The position numbers were made by a program, and so were the translations under genes. Under the pieces are notes generated by a model, which searched no databases, was not told the DNA's origin, and was given only the letters and a program-made list of their open reading frames with translations. From the UHGV virus genome UHGV-1775856: a DNA stretch of 15,357 nt. One strand, 5' to 3'. This DNA comes from a virus. Below are positions 974-12,165 of the stretch, piece by piece; position 1 is the stretch's first letter; each line of letters starts with the position of its first letter.

Positions 974-1858
974 ATGCCGGAAGAAAGTAAAGGCTTCCTT
1001 AGCGTTGAAGAAGTTGCAGGAAATACAGGAGAAATCCACAGCCTGAAGCCCAATAACAACAGCACTATACAACCCATAGCTTTGTTGCGCTTAGGTGTGT
1101 TTGTGCCAACCTTAAAATCTACCAATGTGGCGCTACGTCGCGGATCGTCAGTTACAACAAACACAACGAACGCAACCGAAGAACTATCAAGCCTCAAAAT
1201 TGTTGAGCAGGAAGGCTATGAGGGAATTGAAATTCATGGTCCACGCCTGGATATGGATACTGATTTTAAGGTGTGGGTGGGCATAACCTCCGCGTTGTTT
1301 GACTATGCTCCTGATGATGACGGCATAATCACCCTGCCATTCTCCGAGTTTGCCGATCGATGCGGCTATCCACGTAAGCGCCTTTCAAAGGCGTTCCGTA
1401 AAAGTATTGATGACTCTCTGACACGCATTCAGCAGACAGTTGTCAAATTCCGCTTCCCGGCGGCAAAAGGTCATCTCAATAACATTAACGTCAACTTGTT
1501 GGCATATAGCAGCCTGAATACCGAGCTTGATGTTATCGAGATCCAGCCGCAAAAACAGCTATCTGAACTTTACTATGTTGACTATAAGCGAATCCTGAAG
1601 CTGAAGATGCTGGATAAGCTCGGGCGCAAAGAGACGGCCAAGGTGCTGTATACATTCTTTGAGGCTCTACCCGCCAACCCGGCACCTGTCAGCATTGAGC
1701 GCCTTAGAGCAAGGCTTAATCTCAAATCATCCGTTAGCGTGCAAAATAGCGTTATCAGAAAAGCCATGAAAGATTTGGAAGCTATTGAATATCTTAAATT
1801 TTCAGAGATAAAAAACGGCAGAAAAATCGGCTTCCAGATCCATAAGCGCAATCCATAA
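974..1858 (+). CDS. repA: plasmid replication initiator RepA (P1/RepFIB-like, iteron-binding)
   Basis: 294-aa ORF flanked on both sides by iteron arrays. It contains blocks I recall as conserved in P1-type RepA (QPIALLRLGVFVP, GPRLDMDTDFKVW, C-terminal HKRNP), but the overall sequence and the iterons differ from the P1 19-bp iteron, so this is a divergent allele. Confidence 0.85.
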   Translation: MPEESKGFLSVEEVAGNTGEIHSLKPNNNSTIQPIALLRLGVFVPTLKSTNVALRRGSSVTTNTTNATEELSSLKIVEQEGYEGIEIHGPRLDMDTDFKVWVGITSALFDYAPDDDGIITLPFSEFADRCGYPRKRLSKAFRKSIDDSLTRIQQTVVKFRFPAAKGHLNNINVNLLAYSSLNTELDVIEIQPQKQLSELYYVDYKRILKLKMLDKLGRKETAKVLYTFFEALPANPAPVSIERLRARLNLKSSVSVQNSVIRKAMKDLEAIEYLKFSEIKNGRKIGFQIHKRNP

Positions 1859-1860
1859 TA

Positions 1861-2116
1861 TTGACTATATGCGATAGCGAGAAGTTGACTATAGGCGACA
1901 TTCGTTGACGCTGGTGGATTTTTGCTGGCGTCAATATTCTGCAAGTCGCTATTGAGATGGCTTTTAGGGTCATTTCATCGCGTATAGTCAACGTTTCTCC
2001 CGACAATATCTTACATAGTCGATCTTTGGTGGAGTTAAATCGACTACAGTCAACTTTTGACTGTAGTCACATCGCGCATAGTCAACTATTCAAATTAACC
2101 TTCGCGCATAGTCAAC
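1861..2116. repeat. second iteron field downstream of repA, with copies in both orientations (incA-like copy-control locus)
   Basis: Plus-oriented TTGACT cores at 1861, 1885, 1905 and about 2056; minus-oriented copies (seen as GCGCATAGTCAA or CGTATAGTCAACG) at about 1927, 1981, 2043, 2073 and 2103. Several form inverted pairs. Confidence 0.7.
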
Positions 2117-2150
2117 ATTTGCGCGGTTCTCATCAAGCAGTGGTATTGAT

Positions 2151-2960
2151 ATGCAAGAAGAGAAACAACACTACCTCTACGTTCTGGTGCCAGAGAACGG
2201 AGATACTTTTAAAATCGGCATTTCATGTGGTCCATTGGCACGGTTTAAAGGGCTACAAGTGAGTCCCGATTTTGCGCTTTCACGGGTCTATCGTGGTACA
2301 CGTTTGGCAATGGTTAATCTTGAGCGGGCTTTACACGCAACCTTTTTCCCCTGGAATGCGCCGTGGGAGAAAAGCGTCGGTGGCGGGCATACTGAATGGT
2401 TTACACGAGAGTGTCTTGATAAGGTTTTGGCTCATATCGAATATCTAAATGATATGTGGGGAGGGATTCTCGAGCGCATTAAGTCGAATGATTTACTTCA
2501 GCGTCCAGTAGATGCTGCTTGCTCTTTCGAAAAAGAGCTGGATGTTACTTCTATCGTGACTTTCAAAGATGACGCAGGAATGAGGGACGTGGCTTATGTC
2601 TCCATATCTGGCTATGAACCGGACGCGATCCGCGCTCAATGTGAATTGCTGAAAGCAATGTTTATGCTTCGGACTAAATATCCCTGGGATACAGGGCGGG
2701 TGTGCTTCCCTATGGAAGAGTTAACCGCCACCATTGATTCCCAGCTTTACCACGATAATCCAGAGAAGTTTTTTAGCCTTTTAGCCGGTAATGGGCTTAA
2801 CTGTGTGTCCGGGCTGGGGCGAAGTAGAATCCAACATGCCTCGCTCTTCGGTCCCTTCTTTTACGATCGACACGGGTACTTTGAGGCTGAACTTCCGGCG
2901 CTTACGCGTGCTATAGATACTATCGATTTCGAACGATTATTCGCTGCTCTTAGCAAATAA
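2151..2960 (+). CDS. T5orf172/GIY-YIG-like domain protein, 269 aa; N-terminal nuclease-like domain plus a C-terminal region of about 160 aa of unknown function
   Basis: N-terminus carries the T5orf172/MUG113 signature: YLYVL, KIGIS, R, LH..F, GGHTEWF, in the right order and spacing. The gene starts about 35 bp after the last iteron and ends at a strong terminator. It lies between the replication and partition modules, where P1 (from memory) has no gene. Confidence 0.6.
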   Translation: MQEEKQHYLYVLVPENGDTFKIGISCGPLARFKGLQVSPDFALSRVYRGTRLAMVNLERALHATFFPWNAPWEKSVGGGHTEWFTRECLDKVLAHIEYLNDMWGGILERIKSNDLLQRPVDAACSFEKELDVTSIVTFKDDAGMRDVAYVSISGYEPDAIRAQCELLKAMFMLRTKYPWDTGRVCFPMEELTATIDSQLYHDNPEKFFSLLAGNGLNCVSGLGRSRIQHASLFGPFFYDRHGYFEAELPALTRAIDTIDFERLFAALSK

Positions 2961-2965
2961 CACTG

Positions 2966-2990
2966 ATGCCCCTGAACGGGGCTTTTTTGT
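2966..2990 (+). terminator. rho-independent terminator after the T5orf172-like gene
   Basis: GCCCC (2968-2972), loop TGAAC, GGGGC (2978-2982), then TTTTTT. Confidence 0.7.
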
Positions 2991-3077
2991 GCCTTTCTTG
3001 TAACTCTCAATCGTGCAAAATGAACCAAACATGCAGAGAATGCTATGTACAAGCATCTACGCATACATTATTATTTT

Positions 3078-3113
3078 ATGCAGCATTTTTAATTAAATTC
3101 AAAAATACAGCAT
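3078..3113. promoter_or_regulatory. putative par operon promoter/operator: imperfect 13-bp inverted repeat in an AT-rich leader
   Basis: ATGCAGCATTTTT (3078-3090) and AAAAATACAGCAT (3101-3113) match 11 of 13 as inverted repeats, just upstream of the parA Shine-Dalgarno; ParA autoregulates at such a site in P1. Confidence 0.4.
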
Positions 3114-3128
3114 AAAGGATGACTTTCG

Positions 3129-4325
3129 ATGAGTGATTCCAGCCAGCTTCACAAGGTTGCTCAAAGAGCAAACAGAATGCTCAATGTTCTGACTGAACAA
3201 GTACAGTTGCAAAAGGATGAGCTACACGCGAACGAGTTTTACCAGGTCTATGCGAAAGCGGCACTGGCAAAATTGCCTCTACTGACTCGAGCGAACGTTG
3301 ACTATGCCGTAAGTGAAATGGAAGAAAAGGGTTATGTTTTCGATAAACGCCCTGCTGGCTCTTCAATGAAATATGCGATGTCAATTCAGAACATCATTGA
3401 CATATATGAACATCGCGGAGTGCCAAAATACCGGGATCGCTACAGCGAAGCGTATGTGATTTTCATCTCCAATCTTAAAGGCGGTGTGTCAAAAACTGTA
3501 TCGACGGTTTCTCTGGCGCATGCAATGCGTGCCCACCCTCATCTTCTGATGGAAGATTTAAGGATTCTGGTTATTGACCTTGATCCGCAATCTTCAGCAA
3601 CGATGTTTTTAAGCCATAAACACTCTATTGGTATCGTAAACGCAACATCTGCACAGGCTATGTTGCAGAATGTAAGCCGTGAAGAGCTGTTAGAGGAGTT
3701 TATTGTTCCTTCTGTTGTACCTGGGGTTGACGTTATGCCTGCGTCGATTGACGATGCCTTTATTGCATCCGATTGGAGAGAGCTGTGCAATGAGCATCTA
3801 CCGGGTCAGAACATCCATGCTGTCCTGAAAGAAAATGTGATTGATAAGCTGAAGAGCGATTATGACTTTATCCTCGTTGATAGTGGTCCTCACCTTGACG
3901 CCTTCCTGAAAAATGCTTTGGCCTCGGCCAATATACTGTTTACACCTCTGCCGCCAGCAACTGTCGATTTCCACTCATCGCTTAAATACGTTGCCCGCCT
4001 TCCTGAGTTGGTAAAACTCATTTCGGATGAAGGCTGCGAGTGCCAGCTTGCGACTAACATTGGTTTTATGTCCAAGTTGAGTAACAAGGCAGATCATAAG
4101 TATTGCCATAGCCTGGCTAAAGAAGTGTTCGGTGGGGATATGCTTGATGTCGTCCTCCCTCGCCTTGACGGTTTTGAACGCTGCGGCGAGTCTTTTGACA
4201 CTGTTATTTCAGCTAACCCGGCAACGTATGTTGGTAGTGCTGATGCATTGAAGAACGCGCGAATTGCCGCGGAAGATTTTGCTAAAGCAGTTTTTGACCG
4301 TATTGAATTTATCAGATCTAACTGA
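3129..4325 (+). CDS. parA: partition ATPase ParA (type Ia, with N-terminal DNA-binding extension)
   Basis: 398 aa; deviant Walker A KGGVSKT; length and sequence recognised as P1 ParA-like; followed 16 bp later by parB. Confidence 0.92.
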   Translation: MSDSSQLHKVAQRANRMLNVLTEQVQLQKDELHANEFYQVYAKAALAKLPLLTRANVDYAVSEMEEKGYVFDKRPAGSSMKYAMSIQNIIDIYEHRGVPKYRDRYSEAYVIFISNLKGGVSKTVSTVSLAHAMRAHPHLLMEDLRILVIDLDPQSSATMFLSHKHSIGIVNATSAQAMLQNVSREELLEEFIVPSVVPGVDVMPASIDDAFIASDWRELCNEHLPGQNIHAVLKENVIDKLKSDYDFILVDSGPHLDAFLKNALASANILFTPLPPATVDFHSSLKYVARLPELVKLISDEGCECQLATNIGFMSKLSNKADHKYCHSLAKEVFGGDMLDVVLPRLDGFERCGESFDTVISANPATYVGSADALKNARIAAEDFAKAVFDRIEFIRSN

Positions 4326-4341: not shown

Positions 4342-5343
4342 ATGTCAAAGAAAAACAGACCAACAATTGGGCGAACCCTTAATCCTTCAATATTAAGCGG
4401 ATTTGATAGTTCTTCAGCCTCTGGCGATCGAGTCGAGCAGGTATTCAAGTTATCAACTGGTCGCCAGGCCACATTTATTGAAGAGGTAATACCTCCGAAC
4501 CAGGTAGAAAGCGATACCTTTGTTGATCAGCATAACAACGGGCGTGACCAGGCATCTCTTACGCCAAAATCATTAAAAAGTATCCGAAGCACTATTAAGC
4601 ATCAGCAATTTTACCCTGCAATAGGTGTTAGACGGGCTACAGGGAAAATTGAAATTTTGGATGGTTCCCGGCGTCGAGCTTCTGCCATCTTAGAGAACGT
4701 AGGGTTGCGGGTTTTAGTCACGGACCAGGAGATCAGCGTTCAGGAAGCGCAAAATTTAGCGAAAGACGTTCAGACAGCATTGCAGCACAGCATTCGAGAA
4801 ATAGGTCTGCGTTTGATGCGAATGAAAAATGATGGGATGAGTCAGAAGGATATTGCAGCCAAAGAAGGGCTGTCTCAGGCGAAGGTCACGCGTGCTCTCC
4901 AGGCAGCGAGTGCTCCGGAAGAATTAGTCGCCCTTTTCCCTGTTCAGTCGGAATTAACCTTTTCGGACTACAAAACGCTTTGTGCTGTTGGCGACGAAAT
5001 GGGGAACAAGAATTTAGAGTTTGATCAGCTTATTCAAAACATATCCCCGGAAATAAACGACATCTTATCCATTGAAGAAATGGCCGAAGATGAAGTTAAA
5101 AATAAAATCCTGCGCTTGATAACAAAGGAAGCCTCACTACTCACGGATAAAGGTTCTAAAGATAAGTCCGTAGTTACTGAATTATGGAAATTTGAGGACA
5201 AGGATCGCTTTGCAAGGAAGCGCGTGAAAGGCCGTGCATTTTCTTATGAGTTTAATCGACTTTCAAAAGAGCTACAGGAAGAACTCGACAGGATGATTGG
5301 GCATATCCTTAGAAAGAGCCTCGATAAAAAGCCGAAGCCTTAA
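4342..5343 (+). CDS. parB: partition centromere-binding protein ParB
   Basis: 333 aa; sequence recognised as P1 ParB-like; immediately followed by a parS-like site. Confidence 0.92.
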   Translation: MSKKNRPTIGRTLNPSILSGFDSSSASGDRVEQVFKLSTGRQATFIEEVIPPNQVESDTFVDQHNNGRDQASLTPKSLKSIRSTIKHQQFYPAIGVRRATGKIEILDGSRRRASAILENVGLRVLVTDQEISVQEAQNLAKDVQTALQHSIREIGLRLMRMKNDGMSQKDIAAKEGLSQAKVTRALQAASAPEELVALFPVQSELTFSDYKTLCAVGDEMGNKNLEFDQLIQNISPEINDILSIEEMAEDEVKNKILRLITKEASLLTDKGSKDKSVVTELWKFEDKDRFARKRVKGRAFSYEFNRLSKELQEELDRMIGHILRKSLDKKPKP

Positions 5344-5488: not shown

Positions 5489-5517
5489 GAAAGTCAACAA
5501 GTGACTTTCAATAAAAT
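5489..5517 (+). promoter_or_regulatory. candidate promoter for the structural operon: perfect 8-bp inverted repeat GAAAGTCA-ACAAG-TGACTTTC followed by a -10-like ATAAAAT
   Basis: Arms at 5489-5496 and 5502-5509, then AATAAAAT at 5510-5517. P1 late promoters are reported to carry an inverted repeat centred near -22 plus a -10 element; I do not recall the exact consensus. Confidence 0.35.
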
Positions 5518-5568: not shown

Positions 5569-7275
5569 TTGAGTAACTTACGCGAATACCAGAATCGTAT
5601 TGCAGATATCGCAAAACGCTCTAAAGCTGTGCTTGGCTGGGCAAGCACTGCGCAGTTCGGTACTGATAACCAATTCATTAAAGATGATGCCGCGCGTGCC
5701 GCATCTATCCTTGAAGCTGCACGTAAAGACCCGGTTTTTGCGGGTATCTCTGATAATGCCACCGCTCAAATCGCTACAGCGTGGGCAAGTGCACTGGCTG
5801 ACTACGCCGCAGCACATAAATCTATGCCGCGTCCGGAAATTCTGGCCTCCTGCCACCAGACGCTGGAAAACTGCCTGATTGAGTCCACCCGCAATAGCAT
5901 GGATGCCACTAATAAAGCGATGCTGGAATCCGTCGCAGCAGAGATGATGAGCGTTTCTGACGGTGTTATGCGTCTGCCTTTATTCCTCGCGATGATCCTG
6001 CCTGTTCAGTTGGGGGCAGCTACCGCTGATGCGTGTACCTTCATTCCGGTTACGCGTGACCAGTCCGACATCTATGAAGTCTTTAACGTGGCAGGTTCCT
6101 CTTTTGGTTCTTATGCTGCTGGTGATGTTCTGGACATGCAATCCGTCGGTGTGTACAGCCAGTTACGCCGCCGCTATGTGCTGGTGGCAAGCTCCGATGG
6201 CACCAGCAAAACCGCAACCTTCAAGATGGAAGACTTCGAAGGCCAGAATGTACCAATCCGAAAAGGTCGCACTAATATCTACGTTAACCGTATTAAGTCT
6301 GTTGTTGATAACGGTTCCGGCAGCCTACTTCACTCGTTTACTAATGCTGCTGGTGAGCAAATCACTGTTACCTGCTCTCTGAACTACAACATTGGTCAGA
6401 TTGCCCTGTCGTTCTCCAAAGCGCCGGATAAAGGCACTGAGATCGCAATTGAGACGGAAATCAATATTGAAGCCGCTCCTGAGCTGATCCCGCTGATCAA
6501 CCACGAAATGAAGAAATACACCCTGTTCCCAAGCCAGTTCGTTATCGCGGCTGAGCACACGGTACAGGCGGCGTATGAAGCACAGCGTGAATTTGGTCTG
6601 GACCTGGGTTCCCTACAGTTCCGCACCCTGAAGGAATACCTGTCTCATGAACAGGATATGCTGCGTCTTCGCATCATGATCTGGCGTACTCTTGCGACCG
6701 ACACCTTTGACATCGCTCTGCCGGTTAACCAGTCCTTTGATGTATGGGCAACCATCATTCGTGGCAAATTCCAGACTGTATATCGCGACATTATTGAGCG
6801 CGTTAAATCTTCTGGTGCGATGGGGATGTTTGCTGGTGCTGATGCAGCATCTTTCTTCAAACAGTTGCCGAAGGATTTCTTCCAGCCAGCCGAAGACTAT
6901 ATCCAGACTCCGTATGTTCACTACATCGGTACCCTGTTCGGTAACGTGAAAGTGTACGAAGTACCTGCTGGTATTTGTAAGAACTTAACGACAGAGAACA
7001 TTCAGTTCAGCTCGATGGATGTGCTGTGCTACGTCCGTGATGAAAATCCGGGTAAAGCAGGCTTCGTGACTGGTGATGCTGTCCCGGCTATCCCGTTCCA
7101 GCATCCGACCACTCCGGCGCTGGTCAACCGTACCACACTGTGGGGTTCGGCTATCAACGATATGCACCCACGCAACGGCGCTGATTACTTCACTCGTGTA
7201 ACGCTGACAATGGCCAAAAAAGGCGGGCTTAACTTCATTAGCGGCGACACGATTGATGCCGGTGACTCTGAGTAA
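5569..7275 (+). CDS. large virion structural protein, possibly the major head protein (P1 gene 23 position); start assigned to TTG at 5569
   Basis: Long ORF (track 5548-7275) with no in-frame ATG near the 5' end; TTG at 5569 sits 6 nt after AAGGAAG. It is first in an operon with a sheath-like gene and is followed by a GC hairpin. The head assignment rests on position only. Confidence 0.7.
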   Translation: MSNLREYQNRIADIAKRSKAVLGWASTAQFGTDNQFIKDDAARAASILEAARKDPVFAGISDNATAQIATAWASALADYAAAHKSMPRPEILASCHQTLENCLIESTRNSMDATNKAMLESVAAEMMSVSDGVMRLPLFLAMILPVQLGAATADACTFIPVTRDQSDIYEVFNVAGSSFGSYAAGDVLDMQSVGVYSQLRRRYVLVASSDGTSKTATFKMEDFEGQNVPIRKGRTNIYVNRIKSVVDNGSGSLLHSFTNAAGEQITVTCSLNYNIGQIALSFSKAPDKGTEIAIETEINIEAAPELIPLINHEMKKYTLFPSQFVIAAEHTVQAAYEAQREFGLDLGSLQFRTLKEYLSHEQDMLRLRIMIWRTLATDTFDIALPVNQSFDVWATIIRGKFQTVYRDIIERVKSSGAMGMFAGADAASFFKQLPKDFFQPAEDYIQTPYVHYIGTLFGNVKVYEVPAGICKNLTTENIQFSSMDVLCYVRDENPGKAGFVTGDAVPAIPFQHPTTPALVNRTTLWGSAINDMHPRNGADYFTRVTLTMAKKGGLNFISGDTIDAGDSE

Positions 7276-7335: not shown

Positions 7336-8925
7336 ATGTCTCAATATTCAATTCAACAGTCATTAGGTAATGCATCCGGCGTCGCGGTTAGCCCGATCAA
7401 TGCCGATGCGACGTTATCTACCGGTGTTGCATTAAATAGCAGCTTGTGGGCTGGTATTGGCGTATTTGCGCGTGGCAAGCCGTTTACTGTTCTTGCGGTT
7501 ACTGAGTCCAATTACGAAGATGTTCTCGGCGAACCGCTGAAGCCGTCTTCCGGCTCACAGTTCGAACCAATTCGCCATGTATACGAAGCTATTCAGCAAA
7601 CATCTGGTTATGTTGTTCGCGCTGTTCCGGATGATGCGAAGTTCCCGATTATTATGTTCGATGAATCAGGCGAACCGGCTTACAGTGCGTTGCCATACGG
7701 TTCTGAAATTGAACTTGATAGTGGCGAAGCCTTTGCTATCTACGTTGATGATGGTGATCCGTGTATTTCACCTACCCGTGAGTTAACCATCGAAACGGCA
7801 ACAGCGGACAGCGCGGGTAATGAACGCTTCCTCTTAAAACTGACCCAGACGACTTCGCTCGGCGTGGTAACGACCCTGGAGACACACACTGTGTCTTTGG
7901 CGGAAGAAGCGAAAGATGACATGGGCCGCTTGTGTTATCTGCCTACGGCTCTGGAAGCCCGTTCTAAATATCTGCGCGCGGTTGTTAATGAAGAGCTGAT
8001 TTCGACAGCGAAAGTAACAAACAAAAAATCGTTGGCGTTCACTGGCGGTACCAACGGCGATCAGTCGAAAATCTCAACCGCTGCGTACCTGCGTGCGGTG
8101 AAAGTGCTGAACAATGCGCCGTACATGTACACCGTTGTTCTCGGCCTGGGGTGCTATGACAATGCGGCGATCACTGCGTTAGGTAATATCTGTTCTGATC
8201 GCCTGATTGATGGCTTCTTTGATGTCAAACCGACATTGACGTACACGGAAGCGATCTCTGCTGTTGAAGATACCGGTTTACTTGGTACCGATTATGTAAG
8301 CTGTGCTGTCTATCATTTCCCGTTCTCCTGCAAAGACAAATGGACCCAATCCCGCGTGGTCTTCGGTCTGTCTGGCGCGGCGTATGCGGCGAAAGCTCGT
8401 GGCGTCAAGAAAAACTCCGATGTCGGCGGTTGGCATTACTCACCGGCTGGTGAAGAACGTGCCGTCATAGCTCGTGCATCACTTCAGCCGCTGTATCCTG
8501 AAGACACCCCGGACGAAGAAGCTATGGTCAAGGGCCGACTCAATAAAGTATCTGTAGGTACTTCGGGCCAGATGATCATCGATGATGCTTTAACTTGCTG
8601 CACGCAGGACAACTATCTGCATTTCCAGCACGTCCCATCCCTGATGAACGCAATCAGCCGTTTCTTTGTCCAGTTAGCCCGACAGATGAAGCATAACCCG
8701 GACGGCATTACTGAGTCTGGCCTGACTAAAGGGATGACCAAACTTTTGGATCGCTTTGTCGCCTCCGGCGCTCTGGTGGCTCCTCGTGATCCTGATGCTG
8801 ACGGTACAGAACCGTATGTGCTGAAAGTTACGCAGGCGGAATTCGATAAATGGGAAGTAGTCTGGGCCTGCTGCCCGACTGGCGTAGCCCGTCGTATCCA
8901 GGGCGTACCGCTGCTTATTAAGTAA
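7336..8925 (+). CDS. contractile tail sheath-like protein
   Basis: 529 aa; AGGGAAAG Shine-Dalgarno. The segment AAYAAKARGVKKNSDVGGWHYSPAG resembles the recalled P2 FI sheath segment (ARALGLRAKIDQEQGWHKT), and the C-terminal region has sheath-like hydrophobic periodicity; the size fits a sheath subunit. Confidence 0.7.
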   Translation: MSQYSIQQSLGNASGVAVSPINADATLSTGVALNSSLWAGIGVFARGKPFTVLAVTESNYEDVLGEPLKPSSGSQFEPIRHVYEAIQQTSGYVVRAVPDDAKFPIIMFDESGEPAYSALPYGSEIELDSGEAFAIYVDDGDPCISPTRELTIETATADSAGNERFLLKLTQTTSLGVVTTLETHTVSLAEEAKDDMGRLCYLPTALEARSKYLRAVVNEELISTAKVTNKKSLAFTGGTNGDQSKISTAAYLRAVKVLNNAPYMYTVVLGLGCYDNAAITALGNICSDRLIDGFFDVKPTLTYTEAISAVEDTGLLGTDYVSCAVYHFPFSCKDKWTQSRVVFGLSGAAYAAKARGVKKNSDVGGWHYSPAGEERAVIARASLQPLYPEDTPDEEAMVKGRLNKVSVGTSGQMIIDDALTCCTQDNYLHFQHVPSLMNAISRFFVQLARQMKHNPDGITESGLTKGMTKLLDRFVASGALVAPRDPDADGTEPYVLKVTQAEFDKWEVVWACCPTGVARRIQGVPLLIK

Positions 8926-8934
8926 GGAAATACA

Positions 8935-9750
8935 ATGAGCAAAAACTTTTTTCAATCCGGGGCATTTTTGGGGAATGGACTGTCTCGTTTCGCTTTGAAC
9001 TCTGATCCTGTGCAGTTGATGGAGTCTGCCCGAGCAAGCGCCGAACCGACAACAGATCCGGTTATTAATAATAATCCGAAACCGGCGGCACAGACTAACG
9101 ATAACGTTCCATCTGCCACGGCTCCTGAGCAAATCCTGGAAGGGAAAGACGGTAAAGAATGGACCGTCGAACAGGCGCACCAGATGATTCTGGAAGCTGC
9201 AAATCGAAGTGCTATGCAGAATGCGTTGAGTGATGCGGCCGACGCCGTTTTCGCCTGGGCTGATAGCGGTGATCTGACTTTCGACTCCCTTGATGGTTTC
9301 GTTCAGGCTATCGCTGGTATCTCTGATGACGACGACTCCGAAGTTACAGAAGAACAGGACGATGCCTATAACGAAGCATGGGCAAATGTTGCTGACTTCC
9401 TCGCAGCATGCGGTGTAGATGATGACCTGATCGAAGCACTGGCTGACGATGAAGACGACGACGCAGCTGCTGATGTTGGTGCCTCTATCGCTGGTTTAGA
9501 TAGCGACGACCGTGACGAACTGGAAGCGGCGTTTGTTGTTGCTGGCACTTCTGATGAAATGCTGACTGAAGCATTTAAGAAGGTTGTTCGTAACGGTGAG
9601 ATCAAACTCATCCGTAAACGCCTGCGTAAAAAACGTCTGACTGCGGCTCAAAAATCGGCGCTGAAAAAAGCGCGTCGTAAAGCCCAGACCGGCGCGGCAA
9701 AACTGGCCCGCAAAAAGTCAATGAAACTGCGCCGTAAGCGCCTCGGCTAA
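8935..9750 (+). CDS. highly acidic protein with a Lys/Arg-rich C-terminal tail, function unknown
   Basis: 271 aa; Shine-Dalgarno AAGGAAA; Asp/Glu-rich central region (for example DDDDSEVTEEQDD and ADDEDDDAAAD), and a last ~50 aa that are almost all K/R/A. Confidence 0.7.
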   Translation: MSKNFFQSGAFLGNGLSRFALNSDPVQLMESARASAEPTTDPVINNNPKPAAQTNDNVPSATAPEQILEGKDGKEWTVEQAHQMILEAANRSAMQNALSDAADAVFAWADSGDLTFDSLDGFVQAIAGISDDDDSEVTEEQDDAYNEAWANVADFLAACGVDDDLIEALADDEDDDAAADVGASIAGLDSDDRDELEAAFVVAGTSDEMLTEAFKKVVRNGEIKLIRKRLRKKRLTAAQKSALKKARRKAQTGAAKLARKKSMKLRRKRLG

Positions 9751-9785
9751 AGGAGGAGGCCGGAGAACTCCGGCCTTTAACTTGA

Positions 9786-10367
9786 ATGGCACCTATACCT
9801 TATGGGGTTTACAGCCAGGCTGACGGTGTATCGCCATATCTGAAAGTTACTTTAACGAACTCTCAGTACCAGGTTACCGGATATATCAGCCAGGGAGCGG
9901 CAATGAACATGGCCCAGAATTGGGAAGCGCCGTTTACCGGTATGTCCATGGGATCTGTTGCTGGTGCCTTCAGTGGTTTTGCGCAGGTTGGTACTGAAAC
10001 AACGTCGGTTGCCCGTTGGAACAGCTTAATGGTTTGGGAAGGGGGAACACCGCCGACTTTCACGCTGCCAGTAACTTTCATCGCTTTGTTTGACCCATTC
10101 ACGGAGGTTTCAGGAGCTATCGCCGCATTGTCAGCGATGATTAGCCCGGAACTTAAAGATGCCAGTATTGGTGGTCGAATCCCGGAGCGTGTGACGCTAA
10201 ACATTGGTCGCCGGATCAACATCATTGATGTCGCTATCCAGGACATAAGTTTCGATCTCGATGCGCCCAGGGACAGCAATGGGCATTTCCTGAAAAACAC
10301 CGTCAACCTCCAGTTGACCGGTTCTTCGATATATAACAGCTCCGATATTGTTCGGGCGTTCCAGTAA
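9786..10367 (+). CDS. hypothetical protein in the tail/baseplate-associated module
   Basis: 193 aa, co-directional and tightly packed in the structural operon; the nearest Shine-Dalgarno (AGGAGGAGG, 9751-9759) is separated from the ATG by a hairpin. Confidence 0.65.
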   Translation: MAPIPYGVYSQADGVSPYLKVTLTNSQYQVTGYISQGAAMNMAQNWEAPFTGMSMGSVAGAFSGFAQVGTETTSVARWNSLMVWEGGTPPTFTLPVTFIALFDPFTEVSGAIAALSAMISPELKDASIGGRIPERVTLNIGRRINIIDVAIQDISFDLDAPRDSNGHFLKNTVNLQLTGSSIYNSSDIVRAFQ

Positions 10368-10378
10368 AAGGATTTTAT

Positions 10379-10888
10379 ATGGGGCACAATAATACTAAGG
10401 GAAACCGTAAATTTATTAAGGGCCGCTATACTGCCAACGCGGCCAAAGGCGAACGACTGGTATCTTCTGAATTCCAGCTCACTTTTGCAGGCCATGAAGA
10501 TATCAGCGTACTGGTTCGCACGTCGCAAATTCCTGAAATGACCCGCGAGGATGTGGAGGACTATGGTCCGAATGGTGTGAAGTTCAACCAGCACGGTCCA
10601 ATTCGAAACTCTGGGGAAATCCAGGTCCAGTGCGTGGAGACTATCGAAGGCGATATTCTTCAGTTCATTAAAGATCGCATTGCGGCGAAGGACTATGTTG
10701 ATATCACGATGGCTGCGACCCCTGAATCCAAATCTTCCGGGGTTAACGCTGTGACAAAAGCTGCTACAACAATTGAAATGTTGGACTGCAAAATCTACAG
10801 TGATGCAATCGACTTTAGTACCGAAGATGTGACTGCTGCTGTGCGCCCGTCACTTCGTATCGTCTACAACTGGATTGAGTGGGATTAA
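10379..10888 (+). CDS. hypothetical protein, possible tail tube or baseplate component
   Basis: 169 aa; AAGGA Shine-Dalgarno 6 nt before the ATG; last gene before a strong terminator; the size is typical of contractile-tail tube or baseplate subunits. Confidence 0.7.
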   Translation: MGHNNTKGNRKFIKGRYTANAAKGERLVSSEFQLTFAGHEDISVLVRTSQIPEMTREDVEDYGPNGVKFNQHGPIRNSGEIQVQCVETIEGDILQFIKDRIAAKDYVDITMAATPESKSSGVNAVTKAATTIEMLDCKIYSDAIDFSTEDVTAAVRPSLRIVYNWIEWD

Positions 10889-10906: not shown

Positions 10907-10931
10907 TAAAGCTCCTTCGGGAGCTTTTTTT
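10907..10931 (+). terminator. rho-independent terminator closing the structural operon
   Basis: AAAGCTCC (10908-10915), loop TTCG, GGAGCTTT, then a run of seven T. Confidence 0.75.
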
Positions 10932-11008: not shown

Positions 11009-11059
11009 CAATTATTGAGGTAGATGTTTGTGCCTGTACTGTTAAAGGGGGACTCTAAA

Positions 11060-11656
11060 ATGGCTGTGATTCCAATGTCGTACTCCCCGGGTACTGTCGC
11101 TCGTCGATTTTCGATCCTGGACGGAGTTACCATCCAGGGTGTGCTTTACCAGGTTATATGGGATTCCAAAACCCCATTTGCAGCTGTAATAGAGGCTGCG
11201 CCTTCTATTATCGATGGTGATATGCGCCATAAGGTTGTCGCTACTCTTGAACTTCAACGTCGCCCGCAGCTTGAAGGCGTACTGGTAAGGAAGTTCTGGG
11301 AGGATAGCGATGTTGCCCAGATTGAAGGTATCGTGGTTGATGGAACCGTCCGGGATGTCGGTTTAGCTACTTTTGTTTACGAAACCGTAGCCTCAAAAGC
11401 TGGTGTTGTTTTGCTCAGTGATAATGAGCAATACGAAGGTGGAAAAGCTCTTTGGCAACACATCGCCCGTCGCTCTTCCGAGCTAAAAGTGTTTATCCTT
11501 GACACCGATGCCGCTCAGTATTACCCGTTTGACGGCGAACGTGTTTGCTATGACGGGGTAAGTATTCCTGAATCCGAGATATGGAGTGAACACCCAGATC
11601 GAAGTAAGCATGGGGTTGTTCTGGTCGCTGAATCCATAATTGGAAATGCGGCATAG
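11060..11656 (+). CDS. hypothetical protein, about 200 aa, function unknown; likely C1-controlled
   Basis: ORF track 11024-11656. ATG at 11060 has AAGGGGG about 9 nt upstream; the ATG at 11024 has GAGGT only 3 nt upstream. It has its own promoter region after the operon terminator. Confidence 0.65.
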   Translation: MAVIPMSYSPGTVARRFSILDGVTIQGVLYQVIWDSKTPFAAVIEAAPSIIDGDMRHKVVATLELQRRPQLEGVLVRKFWEDSDVAQIEGIVVDGTVRDVGLATFVYETVASKAGVVLLSDNEQYEGGKALWQHIARRSSELKVFILDTDAAQYYPFDGERVCYDGVSIPESEIWSEHPDRSKHGVVLVAESIIGNAA

Positions 11657-11838: not shown

Positions 11839-12165
11839 TCAATGTCTGGCTTTTTTTCTATAGAAATCACCAGGAAGGGTGAATATCCACATCAGAAGAA
11901 ATGTTGCAGCAAACATGATCCCTAATGGCCAGACCGCGCCAAAGAAAATCCATACTAAGATCTCCTCTGTTCGTTCTTTGCGGTCGATATCGACAAGCAT
12001 TCTTCGGCTGATCATGTATACACAGAAGCCAATACAAACATATCCTGCAAAAGCGATCGCTAACTGTAAAAAATCAGATTGCCTCTCCGACCTCAAACTG
12101 AAAACGCCAGGTGACTCCAGATTAGAGCAATCTATCACCCTCTGAATCCTGCCGGTATACCCCAT
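11839..12165 (-). CDS. possible small membrane protein with two hydrophobic helices, overlapping the 3' end of repL
   Basis: Two hydrophobic segments (LAIAFAGYVCIGFCVYMI and ILVWIFFGAVWPLGIMFAATFLLMWIF); no convincing Shine-Dalgarno at any candidate start (12165, 12015 or 12000); the position matches where P1 has the small rlf genes downstream of repL, by recollection. Confidence 0.3.
   Translation of the reverse strand: MGYTGRIQRVIDCSNLESPGVFSLRSERQSDFLQLAIAFAGYVCIGFCVYMISRRMLVDIDRKERTEEILVWIFFGAVWPLGIMFAATFLLMWIFTLPGDFYRKKARH

Follow-up and report, generated by a model that had tools for sequence, protein, structure and literature searches.

The late operon and gene 21

We analysed a window of 15,357 nucleotides (UHGV virus genome UHGV-1775856) that contains a late operon with the P1-like gene order 23-22-21-pmgG-bplB; prt and pro are located elsewhere (Table 1). 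Gene 21, the subject of this analysis, shares 97-99% nucleotide identity with gene 21 of P1, P7, SJ46 and their relatives, and belongs to a P1-like phage-plasmid. It is an ATG-initiated open reading frame of 271 codons plus a stop (TAA at 9748-9750). An AAGGA Shine-Dalgarno sequence stands before the ATG, and a gap of 10 nt separates the gene from the end of the sheath gene. Its position directly 3' of the sheath gene, pointed out in the original prediction, is confirmed and is kept in distant relatives. Throughout the P1 lineage it is flanked by sheath and tube-type genes and is not a neighbour of the portal and protease genes, which counts against a role in the head. The region around the hairpin that follows gene 21 (9735-9800) has a predicted RNA folding energy of -24.8 kcal/mol (z=-2.7), and this hairpin was not called by the terminator scan.

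Table 1. Coordinates of genes and features in and around gene 21 (positions are those of the window).
Feature	Position	Strand	Basis
Late promoter LP23, drives 23-22-21-pmgG-bplB	5499..5517	+	Identical to annotated P1 LP23
Gene 23, major capsid protein (MCP), TTG start, 568 aa	5569..7275	+	P1 annotation
Gene 23 maturation site MLE120/S121	5926-5928	+	Edman-determined site (PMC9024508)
Gene 22, tail sheath	7336..8925	+	phrog_1036, E=2.7e-231; P1 cryo-EM (PMC10304247)
Gene 21, coding sequence under study	8935..9750	+	ORF list, translation, nucleotide identity, phrog_1053 match
gp21 N-terminal 30 residues (FxxGxxLxxxLxxxA...), up to candidate site LME30/S31	8935..9024	+	Conserved in enterobacterial part of family
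gp21 Pro/Ala-rich variable linker, residues 31-87, with candidate sites ILE69/G70 and ILE87/A88	9025..9195	+	
gp21 acidic helical domain, residues 88-212, up to conserved site LTE212/A213	9196..9570	+	
gp21 basic C-terminal module, residues 213-271	9571..9747	+	Conservation, AF2, hhalign
GC-rich hairpin directly 3' of gene 21 stop, no strong T tract	9755..9778	+	
pmgG, tube-linking / baseplate-tube junction protein	9786..10367	+	phrog_1114; PMC12810830
bplB, tail tube protein	10379..10888	+	phrog_1120; cryo-EM (PMC10304247, PMC12810830)
Intrinsic terminator closing the late operon, 8-bp stem then T run	10908..10927	+	

The charge profile bears out the predicted Asp/Glu-rich centre followed by a basic tail of about 50 residues. 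Residues 111-215 contain 34 D+E against 2 K+R (net -32) and residues 216-271 contain 25 K+R against 1 D+E (net +24); the tail quoted in the original prediction corresponds exactly to residues 224-271. The pI of the whole protein (29 kDa) is 4.6. The acidic domain (13.0 kDa) has a pI of 4.05 and a net charge of -35, and the basic module (6.8 kDa) has a pI of 12 and a net charge of +25. In the AF2 model gp21 consists of helices and a single short hairpin, with residues 1-70 disordered. The N-terminal 30 residues (pLDDT <50) may be a targeting or propeptide segment, and the linker at residues 31-87 is of low complexity and variable length in the alignment. The acidic domain is predicted to be compact and helical rather than a long coiled coil, which counts against gp21 being a prohead core protein. 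In the basic module, a beta-hairpin (VVRNGEI) is predicted to be followed by a helix-turn-helix (E217-224, H237-249, H253-270).

Family, annotation and published record

The only PHROG match of gp21 is phrog_1053 (E=8.6e-99). A word-indexed search returned 85 homologues, from close to distant, and an exhaustive search (E<=1e-3) placed 600 representative clusters (50% identity) in the family. The basic tail is the most conserved part, where the majority of invariant or almost invariant columns are found. It is conserved position by position (KVVRNGKV..IRKR.RK.RLSAAQK.ALKKARRKA.T.AAKLARKKSMKLR.KRG), with about 50% identity across the family as against 21-33% for the MCP. Given this conserved tail, the breadth of the family and the near-identity of the gene among P1-like phages, the acidic/basic layout is not a chance of composition. 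In the relatives P0190, P0210 and P0213 the basic module occurs as a tandem duplicate, giving these proteins a polyprotein-like appearance (P0190 and P0210 are on short contigs that carry no gene context). One relative is encoded in a T4-like module among head and neck genes, in the order S77 protease, Gp23, an unidentified gene, gp13 and the gp21 homologue, which speaks for a head role.

A profile scan of viral contigs with gp21 alignment A1 returned near-identical P1 loci only, and the subfamily alignments A3 and A4 were used next. Searches of isolated phages with distant family members (tblastn) found P1-like phages and Xanthomonas phage Rb1 only, and these matches carry no informative annotation. 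No meaningful sequence match in Pfam, NCBIfam or PDB was identified for gp21, the family profile, the isolated tail or the isolated acidic domain, and no fold match to gp21 was found. The Pfam scan with subfamily A4 gave only scattered chance matches.

In GenBank, gene 21 is labelled "baseplate or tail tube" or "tail tube protein", a label that has spread to homologues; the P7 annotation has placeholder names only. The label "baseplate or tail tube" is said to derive from electron microscopy of amber mutants, and counts against a head role. By CRISPRi, gene 21 has been called "essential", but nothing can be concluded from this call, since the roadblock has polar effects on pmgG and bplB. Polarity on these two genes could account for the classical phenotype as well as for the CRISPRi call.

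Cryo-EM has identified BplB as the P1 tube, Tub as the initiator and PmgG as the linker (PMC10304247, PMC12810830). A text search of these papers found no mention of gp21, and it is not among the proteins modelled. It is also absent from the published P1 virion proteome table. Processing would leave just two fully tryptic peptides in the range of 6-35 residues (LTAAQK and AQTGAAK) from the acidic and basic domains, with one further peptide (residues 4-18) from the N-terminal fragment. Thus, tryptic LC-MS/MS with a two-peptide threshold would probably miss mature gp21 products. Peptides of interest for virion mass spectrometry are DELEAAFVVAGTSDEMLTE, EWTVEQAHQMILE and residues 213-271.

A tail tube protein of the T4 gp19 type was considered and rejected: the AF2 model is helical, not a beta-sandwich, there is no match to gp19 in Pfam or PHROGs, the tube is BplB, and gp21 is missing from the proteome table. 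A chaperone of the lambda gpG/GT type was rejected as well, as the neighbours of gene 21 are the sheath gene and pmgG and there is no overlapping plus-strand open reading frame within 8935-9750. The P1 tape-measure gene, sit, is located elsewhere in the P1 genome. Its proposed chaperone is pmgB, just upstream of sit (PMC9024508). The original prediction fairly remarked that the placement is odd for a tube or chaperone gene; gp21 is best read as neither, and not as a DNA mimic.

Recent structural papers describe P1 as having no separate scaffold protein, and the P1 literature treats the 120-residue delta domain of the capsid protein as the scaffold (PMC9024508, PMC12810830), which counts against a core role for gp21. 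Our literature search found no claim that gp21 is a scaffold.

Candidate protease sites and the capsid maturation site

The P1 capsid protein gp23 is cut at AMLE120/S121, as established by Edman data (PMC9024508), and its delta domain has further hydrophobic-x-E/[AS] motifs at E49 and E105. The visible part of DarA begins at residue 70, directly past DLLE68/A69. We identified four motifs in gp21 that resemble these capsid and DarA sites: LME30/S, ILE69/G, ILE87/A and LTE212/A. The N-terminal hydrophobic-hydrophobic-[E or D]/[SAG] motifs follow phage type, with E where the phage is E-type and D where it is D-type.

Covariation was evaluated in 96 distinct loci or phages that carry both gp21-like and MCP genes. 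In 92 of them, the residue at the position of gp21 E212 is identical to that at the position of MCP E120 (58 D/D pairs, 34 E/E pairs and no mixed pairs). The remaining four are misalignments of the MCP, so that all 92 alignable cases are concordant. Fitch parsimony on neighbour-joining trees indicates 3-4 independent switches between E and D, every one concordant. The P3 residue is correlated too (identical in 23/96 loci, compared with 9.9 in shuffles; none of 2000 shuffles reached the observed value). As a specificity control, we scored 20 D/E-rich columns of gp21-like proteins, among which only E87 (0.99) and E212 (1.00) follow phage type; the others score 0.03-0.82. The E87 column follows the E/D type in 99% of 89 sequences, and within the MCP only columns of the delta domain do so.

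From this pattern we infer that gp21 is a substrate of the head-maturation protease. If the shared motif reflects cleavage by the same protease, gp21 should be inside the prohead, and the covariation thus predicts for gp21 what holds for gp68 of T4, a location within the prohead and cleavage by the head protease. Counting against a protease substrate is the lack of any protease family match for P1 Pro in Pfam and PHROGs. DarA_N proteins could not be used as a third covarying substrate, because those in loci L004 and L008 are without the long propeptide.

Function of gp21 and comparison with known systems

The prohead core protein gp68 of T4, also termed a head scaffolding protein, numbers about 240 copies, and the T4 protease degrades it by cutting at L/I-x-E sites (PMC9958956, PMC9026906). 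Its N-terminal half is acidic and is followed by an invariant [LIV]-x-E67/ site, by the pattern x-[IVLM]-V-K-x-V-x-x-x-G-E-[IV] and by a basic tail. The gp21 family has the same type of architecture, with an acidic part, an L/I-x-E site, the shared pattern x-x-(V)K-x-V-x-x-x-G-E-[IV] and a Lys/Arg-rich helical tail, which in gp68 ends in ...R-K-x-x-G-L. The junctions read LNE67/FIVKHVSARGEI...RKALGLS in gp68 and LTE212/AFKKVVRNGEI...RKRLG in gp21, where the family consensus ends in ...KRGL.

Comparison of the basic C-terminal domain with a diverse gp68 alignment (A7) using hhalign gave probabilities of 81.6% for A1, 93.0% for A4 and 83.4% for A3 (E between 1e-5 and 4e-7), in a region that is compositionally biased. 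In the A1 comparison gp21 E212 is aligned to gp68 E67. With a narrower, less diverse gp68 alignment (A6) the values were 69%, 71% and 11%. Against the HMMER tail model, real gp68 sequences score modestly above half-wise shuffles (mean 6.1 bits versus -3.6 +/- 3.5). The likeness to gp68 is a consistent signal, but it is seen only at the profile-profile level and within the biased region. Precomputed Pfam domains, which are absent from all 85 gp21 homologues, include PF26830 for gp68 homologues. There is no cross-match among PHROG families either, gp21 being confined to phrog_1053 and gp68 to phrog_1049, 14114, 3503 and 33445. The Pfam set scanned here did not include PF26830 and left T4 gp68 itself unmatched; thus, hmmscan of gp21 is no test of gp68 membership. 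The original prediction would have given way to clear homology to a scaffolding protein. The shared layout and hhalign probabilities of 82-93% come close to this, at the level of profiles only.

We consider it likely that gp21 belongs to the prohead interior as a core protein of scaffold type that the head protease cuts, and that it is an enlarged, distant counterpart of T4 gp68 rather than a tail protein. The internal virion protein suggested by the original prediction would survive in this modified form, as a core component processed within the prohead. The protein would be made in quantity from LP23 alongside the capsid protein and built into the prohead interior. The protease that removes the N-terminal 120 residues of the capsid protein at MLE/S would act on gp21 as well, cutting behind E87 and E212 and probably also behind E30 and E69. 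Processing would separate the disordered N-terminal part, the very acidic folded helical domain of 125 residues and the basic module of 59 residues (+25). With E212 cut, the acidic body and the basic module would no longer be linked, much as the herpesvirus scaffold is released from its capsid-binding C-terminal tail. Speculatively, the basic module might bind the inner surface of the capsid, the portal or DNA, and the acidic domain might mask it before cleavage.

Alternatively, gp21 may be the precursor of a DNA-bound internal peptide, with the 59-residue module (+25) delivered to the head, staying on the genome and possibly being injected, a reading that retains part of the idea in the original prediction. 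The acidic domain would then be a removable DNA-like mask in the cytoplasm, and the peptide a histone-like counter-ion, a condenser or a DNA-protecting passenger. Conservation of the module above that of the MCP (about 50% versus 21-33%) fits an invariant ligand such as DNA, and the tandem duplication of the module in some relatives, the near-cancelling net charges (-35 versus +25) and the probable invisibility of mature products to tryptic LC-MS/MS are all in keeping with such a peptide. However, reviews of T4 describe gp68 as degraded, with peptides that mostly leave the prohead (PMC9958956, PMC9026906), and P1 cryo-EM reports no such component, though averaging would hide any short peptides bound to DNA. 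There is also no match to a known DNA-binding family, and the histone-like condenser analogy of the original prediction falls with the lack of a histone-like family match. We regard this explanation as doubtful.

A tail assembly factor that is not incorporated into the tail, such as a chaperone or catalyst for sheath, tube or baseplate, would explain the conserved placement of gene 21 (sheath upstream, pmgG and bplB downstream), the historical label "baseplate or tail tube", and the absence of gp21 from the virion proteome and cryo-EM models. The basic tail might bind inside the tube, since a negative charge has been reported for the BplB lumen (PMC10304247), or gp21 might restrain sheath protein until a tube exists. 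We find this improbable. A tail factor leaves unexplained why two gp21 motifs switch between E and D with the capsid site (92/92 alignable cases, 3-4 switches) while 18 other acidic columns do not, given that the maturation protease acts inside proheads. The gp68-like architecture is equally unaccounted for, a plus-strand frameshift partner is absent, gene 21 is away from the tape-measure gene, and the mutant phenotype and CRISPRi call are explicable by polarity. An anti-restriction protein that mimics DNA, as Ocr and ArdA do, or some other factor of defence or counter-defence within the structural operon, is very hard to credit: Asp/Glu-rich residues 111-215 and the packaging of anti-restriction proteins by P1 (the Dar system; PMC9024508, PMC12810830) are all that speaks for it, but Ocr and ArdA are not among the Pfam matches, there is no Pfam, NCBIfam, PDB or fold match, expression is late behind LP23, gene 21 is a syntenic core gene of diverse phages (600 clusters) and not accessory, nothing in Ocr or ArdA corresponds to the conserved protease-type sites or the basic module, and the published Dar system comprises six defined proteins that exclude gp21 (PMC9024508).

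P1 is one of the classic model phages, and phage-plasmids of its kind commonly carry resistance genes. Should gp21 be a prohead core protein of the gp68 type, the annotation of gene 21 should be corrected, P1 head assembly would be more T4-like than HK97-like, and there would be a new candidate player in the unexplained head-size dimorphism of P1. If the basic peptide is retained, a widespread class of packaged basic peptides would have been overlooked across 600 clusters, perhaps including the tails of T4 gp68. More generally, covariation of the P1 residue between a capsid maturation site and motifs elsewhere can identify prohead-protease substrates from sequence alone.

Several other core and scaffold proteins share features with gp21. 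The major scaffolding core protein of T4, gp22, is similar in length (269 versus 271 aa), likewise acidic and helical, and cut by the head protease at L/I-x-E sites. However, the hhalign probability is 0.3% and gp22 lacks the basic C-terminal module. No relationship of gp21 to T4 gp67 was found by hhalign. The internal proteins IPI-III of T4 have an N-terminal targeting sequence that is removed at L/I-x-E, reminiscent of the short conserved N-terminus of gp21 up to LME30/S31 and its basic product. They differ in that they show no homology to gp21 and remain largely intact once cut, and their injection is established. The scaffolds of P22 (gp8) and herpesvirus combine an acidic elongated or helical body with a short basic C-terminal capsid-binding helix-turn-helix or tail, a layout similar to that of gp21, and in herpesvirus the protease cuts just before the capsid-binding tail (the maturational site) to free the scaffold. 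No sequence or fold match to these scaffolds was found, and the gp21 tail is far more basic (+25 over 59 residues).

With its extra disordered N-terminal region and larger folded acidic domain, gp21 is about twice as long as gp68, and the delta domain of the partner capsid protein is also longer in P1 (120 residues versus 65 in T4). Gene 21 lies between sheath and tube-type genes, whereas the gp68 gene lies between the portal and protease genes (T4-like order 20-67-68-21). Effects on head size are known for T4 gp68 and, by analogy, gp21 might speculatively influence head size in P1.

Gene 21 and its neighborhood

The window (15.4 kb) comes from a P1-like phage-plasmid (Punavirus), and the ORF under study is its gene 21, with 97-99% DNA identity to gene 21 of P1, P7, SJ46, RCS47 and others, in which it is labelled "gp21; baseplate or tail tube", "tail tube protein" or "hypothetical protein". 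An ORF with a T5orf172 domain sits between repA and parA (interval 1858-3129), where phage P1 presumably has the incA iteron region only. Downstream of bplB the window departs from P1, in which pmgF, rlfB and rlfA stand at this place; this region looks like a variable cargo spot. A strong, GC-rich hairpin without a proper T tract separates the gene 21 stop codon from pmgG (RNA fold of 9735-9800: -24.8 kcal/mol, z=-2.7), and no clear Shine-Dalgarno sequence precedes pmgG. The two features combined might reduce production of PmgG, of which a virion has 6 copies, compared with the genes upstream.

Features of the window and candidate protease sites in gp21 (arrow, predicted cut)
Feature	Position	Strand	Remarks
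repA, Rep3-type	974-1858	+	294-aa RepA
ORF with T5orf172 (GIY-YIG-related) domain	2151-2960	+	269 aa; Pfam E=6.9e-6
parA	3129-4325	+	
parB	4342-5343	+	parS next
LP23 late promoter	between parS and gene 23	+	
gene 23	5569-7275	+	major capsid protein
gp23 delta domain	5569-5928		residues 1-120
gene 22	7336-8925	+	sheath
gene 21	8935-9750	+	feature under study
hairpin	9755-9778	+	
pmgG	9786-10367	+	
bplB	10379-10888	+	terminator after bplB
210-aa ORF	11024-11656	+	phrog_7522; weak GNAT-like match
108-aa hydrophobic ORF	11839-12165	-	
repL, kilA, ant1		-	
gp21 site LME30↓S31			end of conserved N-terminal segment
gp21 site ILE69↓G70			
gp21 site ILE87↓A88			start of helical domain
gp21 site LTE212↓A213			directly before basic module

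The P1 lineage keeps the order capsid, (small gene), sheath, gp21-like and PmgG-like, even at 21-33% capsid identity. In a distant relative with two basic modules (L005 5703-6941), the homologue lies in a T4-like head/neck cluster, after an S77 protease, Gp23, an unidentified gene and a gp13-like gene, and the sheath and tube are seven genes beyond it.

The protein encoded by gene 21 has 271 residues and a pI of 4.6. The original prediction described its acidic center and basic tail accurately, as the charge profile gives a net -32 for residues 111-215 and +24 for residues 216-271. Conservation of this feature is strong: an indexed search returned 85 homologues and an exhaustive profile search 600 representative clusters (393 with E<=1e-10). 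The basic tail, compared among approximately 200 representatives, is position by position the best-conserved part in an alignment reaching down to ~33% identity. AlphaFold2, run with the family alignment, predicts a disordered N-terminal 70 residues, a confident helical domain (78-203, pLDDT 82-90), and a disordered junction (208-224) followed by a beta-hairpin and helix-turn-helix. In three relatives (P0190, P0210, P0213) the complete basic module occurs twice in tandem, with an acidic stretch before each copy, an arrangement that suggests that the module is released by cleavage.

Candidate protease sites in gp21 and the capsid cleavage site

In the P1 capsid protein the cut falls between E120 and S121 (AMLE↓SVAAEM; Edman data, PMC9024508), a numbering that we checked against the sequence, and DarA is visible by cryo-EM only from residue 70, just past DLLE68↓A69. 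The four gp21 motifs resemble these sites and occupy conserved positions. Motifs of this kind are frequent in acidic helical proteins, and we therefore sought a test independent of motif counting.

Some gp21 relatives have Asp rather than Glu immediately before the basic tail. Loci were collected from IMG/VR using three subfamily alignments, together with three metagenomic contigs; in each, the gp21-like gene and a P1-type capsid gene were identified, and both families were aligned. The gp21 E212 column agrees with the capsid E120 column in 92 of 96 distinct pairs (58 D/D and 34 E/E). There are no mixed pairs, the other four being capsid misalignments. Neighbour-joining trees and Fitch parsimony indicate three to four independent switches between E and D, concordant in both proteins each time. 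The P3 residue (third before the cut) is also correlated, being identical in 23 of the 96 pairs versus 9.9 expected, a count reached by none of 2000 shuffles.

Among 20 D/E-rich gp21-family columns used as a control, only E212 (1.00) and E87 (0.99) track phage type, i.e., Glu or Asp before the capsid cut; the others score 0.03-0.82. The only capsid columns that track type are in the removed delta domain, and acidic columns of the mature part do not. N-terminal gp21-like motifs have D in D-type and E in E-type phages. The simplest explanation of these sequence patterns is that one protease reads both the capsid propeptide and gp21, and that its preference at the P1 subsite changed several times. 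As such a protease acts inside the prohead, gp21 should be prohead-internal.

Besides the proven MLE120↓S, the delta domain contains SILE49↓A and LIE105↓S, and two of its columns also track E/D type (0.99 and 0.82), suggesting that the gp23 propeptide is cut into pieces. The D-type capsid site has the form hydrophobic-L-D↓S (loci L171-L175, L178, L189, L191, L091-L170). Several P1-type myophage lineages appear to have switched the subsite preference of the head protease from Glu to Asp, which is unusual compared to the L/I-x-E specificity of the T4 type. RefSeq and phrog_1801 label the P1 prohead protease gene, pro (L010 4015-5034; NC_005856 19014-20033), as "tail fiber protein", and searches of Pfam, NCBIfam and PHROGs matched Pro to no family of proteases.

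Published virion data and a proposed role of gp21

Gonzales et al. (PMC9024508) do not list gp21 in their table of virion proteins identified by LC-MS/MS. Four good tryptic peptides are expected from the uncut protein, so its absence argues against uncut gp21 being part of the virion. With cuts at E30, E87 and E212, the acidic domain is predicted to yield one 102-residue tryptic and one semi-tryptic peptide, and the basic module no peptide of more than 7 residues. Thus, the proteome is compatible with retained fragments, notably the 6.8-kDa, net +25 peptide. In the cryo-EM papers from 2023 and 2026, gp21 is neither mentioned nor modelled; there, BplB is the tube, Tub the tube initiator and PmgG the tube-linker (PMC10304247, PMC12810830). 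No separate scaffolding protein has been identified in P1 according to the proteome and 2026 papers, which propose the cleaved 120-residue gp23 N-terminus as scaffold (PMC9024508, PMC12810830). A CRISPRi screen scored gene 21 as essential; this is uninformative because a roadblock has polar effects, as its authors stress, and gene 21 is followed by pmgG and bplB.

We propose that LP23 would drive expression of gp21 together with the capsid protein, that gp21 would be incorporated into the prohead core, and that the head protease would then split it into three products: the N-terminal part, the acidic domain (13 kDa) and the basic module (6.8 kDa). Cleavage at E212 would uncouple the body from the basic module, whose partner might, speculatively, be the capsid inner surface, the portal or DNA. 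The acidic domain might mask the module and, by analogy with T4 gp68, gp21 might influence head size. A precursor of a DNA-bound peptide would be a variant of this explanation rather than an alternative. A tail-assembly chaperone matches the gene position and the old annotation, but leaves the covariation with the capsid site and the gp68-like layout unexplained. A DNA mimic has composition as its sole support. The interpretation in the original prediction is right in part (an internal head protein) and wrong in part (a DNA mimic; an unusual tube or chaperone). A prohead core role for gp21 would correct an annotation that has long stood for a model phage. The interest of this finding is moderate, and would rise should the basic peptide turn out to be packaged alongside the DNA.

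Comparison with T4 head-core proteins

Profile comparison with T4 head-core proteins found no relation of gp21 to gp22 or gp67, and matched the C-terminal half of gp68 to the gp21 tail. A diverse gp68 alignment gave hhalign probabilities of 81.6%, 93.0% and 83.4% against three gp21 subfamily profiles, with gp21 E212 aligned to gp68 E67 in the A1 subfamily comparison; a narrower gp68 alignment gave 69%, 71% and 11%. In a HMMER tail model, real gp68 sequences score ~2.8 sd above half-wise shuffles, and HMMER-level family models of gp21 and gp68 did not cross-match. The C-terminus of phrog_33445 (262 residues, function not annotated) matches the gp68 tail with E-values as low as 1.4e-7; this family may represent a further long version of the gp68 architecture and possibly a gp68-gp21 bridge.

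T4 reviews describe gp68 as a component of the prohead core, present in ~240 copies and degraded at L/I-x-E sites by the T4 protease (itself named gp21). It is dispensable for assembly, and was linked to head-size determination in the 1984 paper defining its gene (PMC9958956, PMC9026906). T4 gp68 resembles gp21 in miniature: its N-terminal half is acidic, the invariant [LIV]-x-E67 comes next, followed by FIVKHVSARGEI..., and the Lys/Arg-rich tail ends in RKALGL(S). On these alignments homology is probable, and the functional analogy is strong. The protein fits best among the prohead core proteins typified by T4 gp68, as a new and larger member of that kind.
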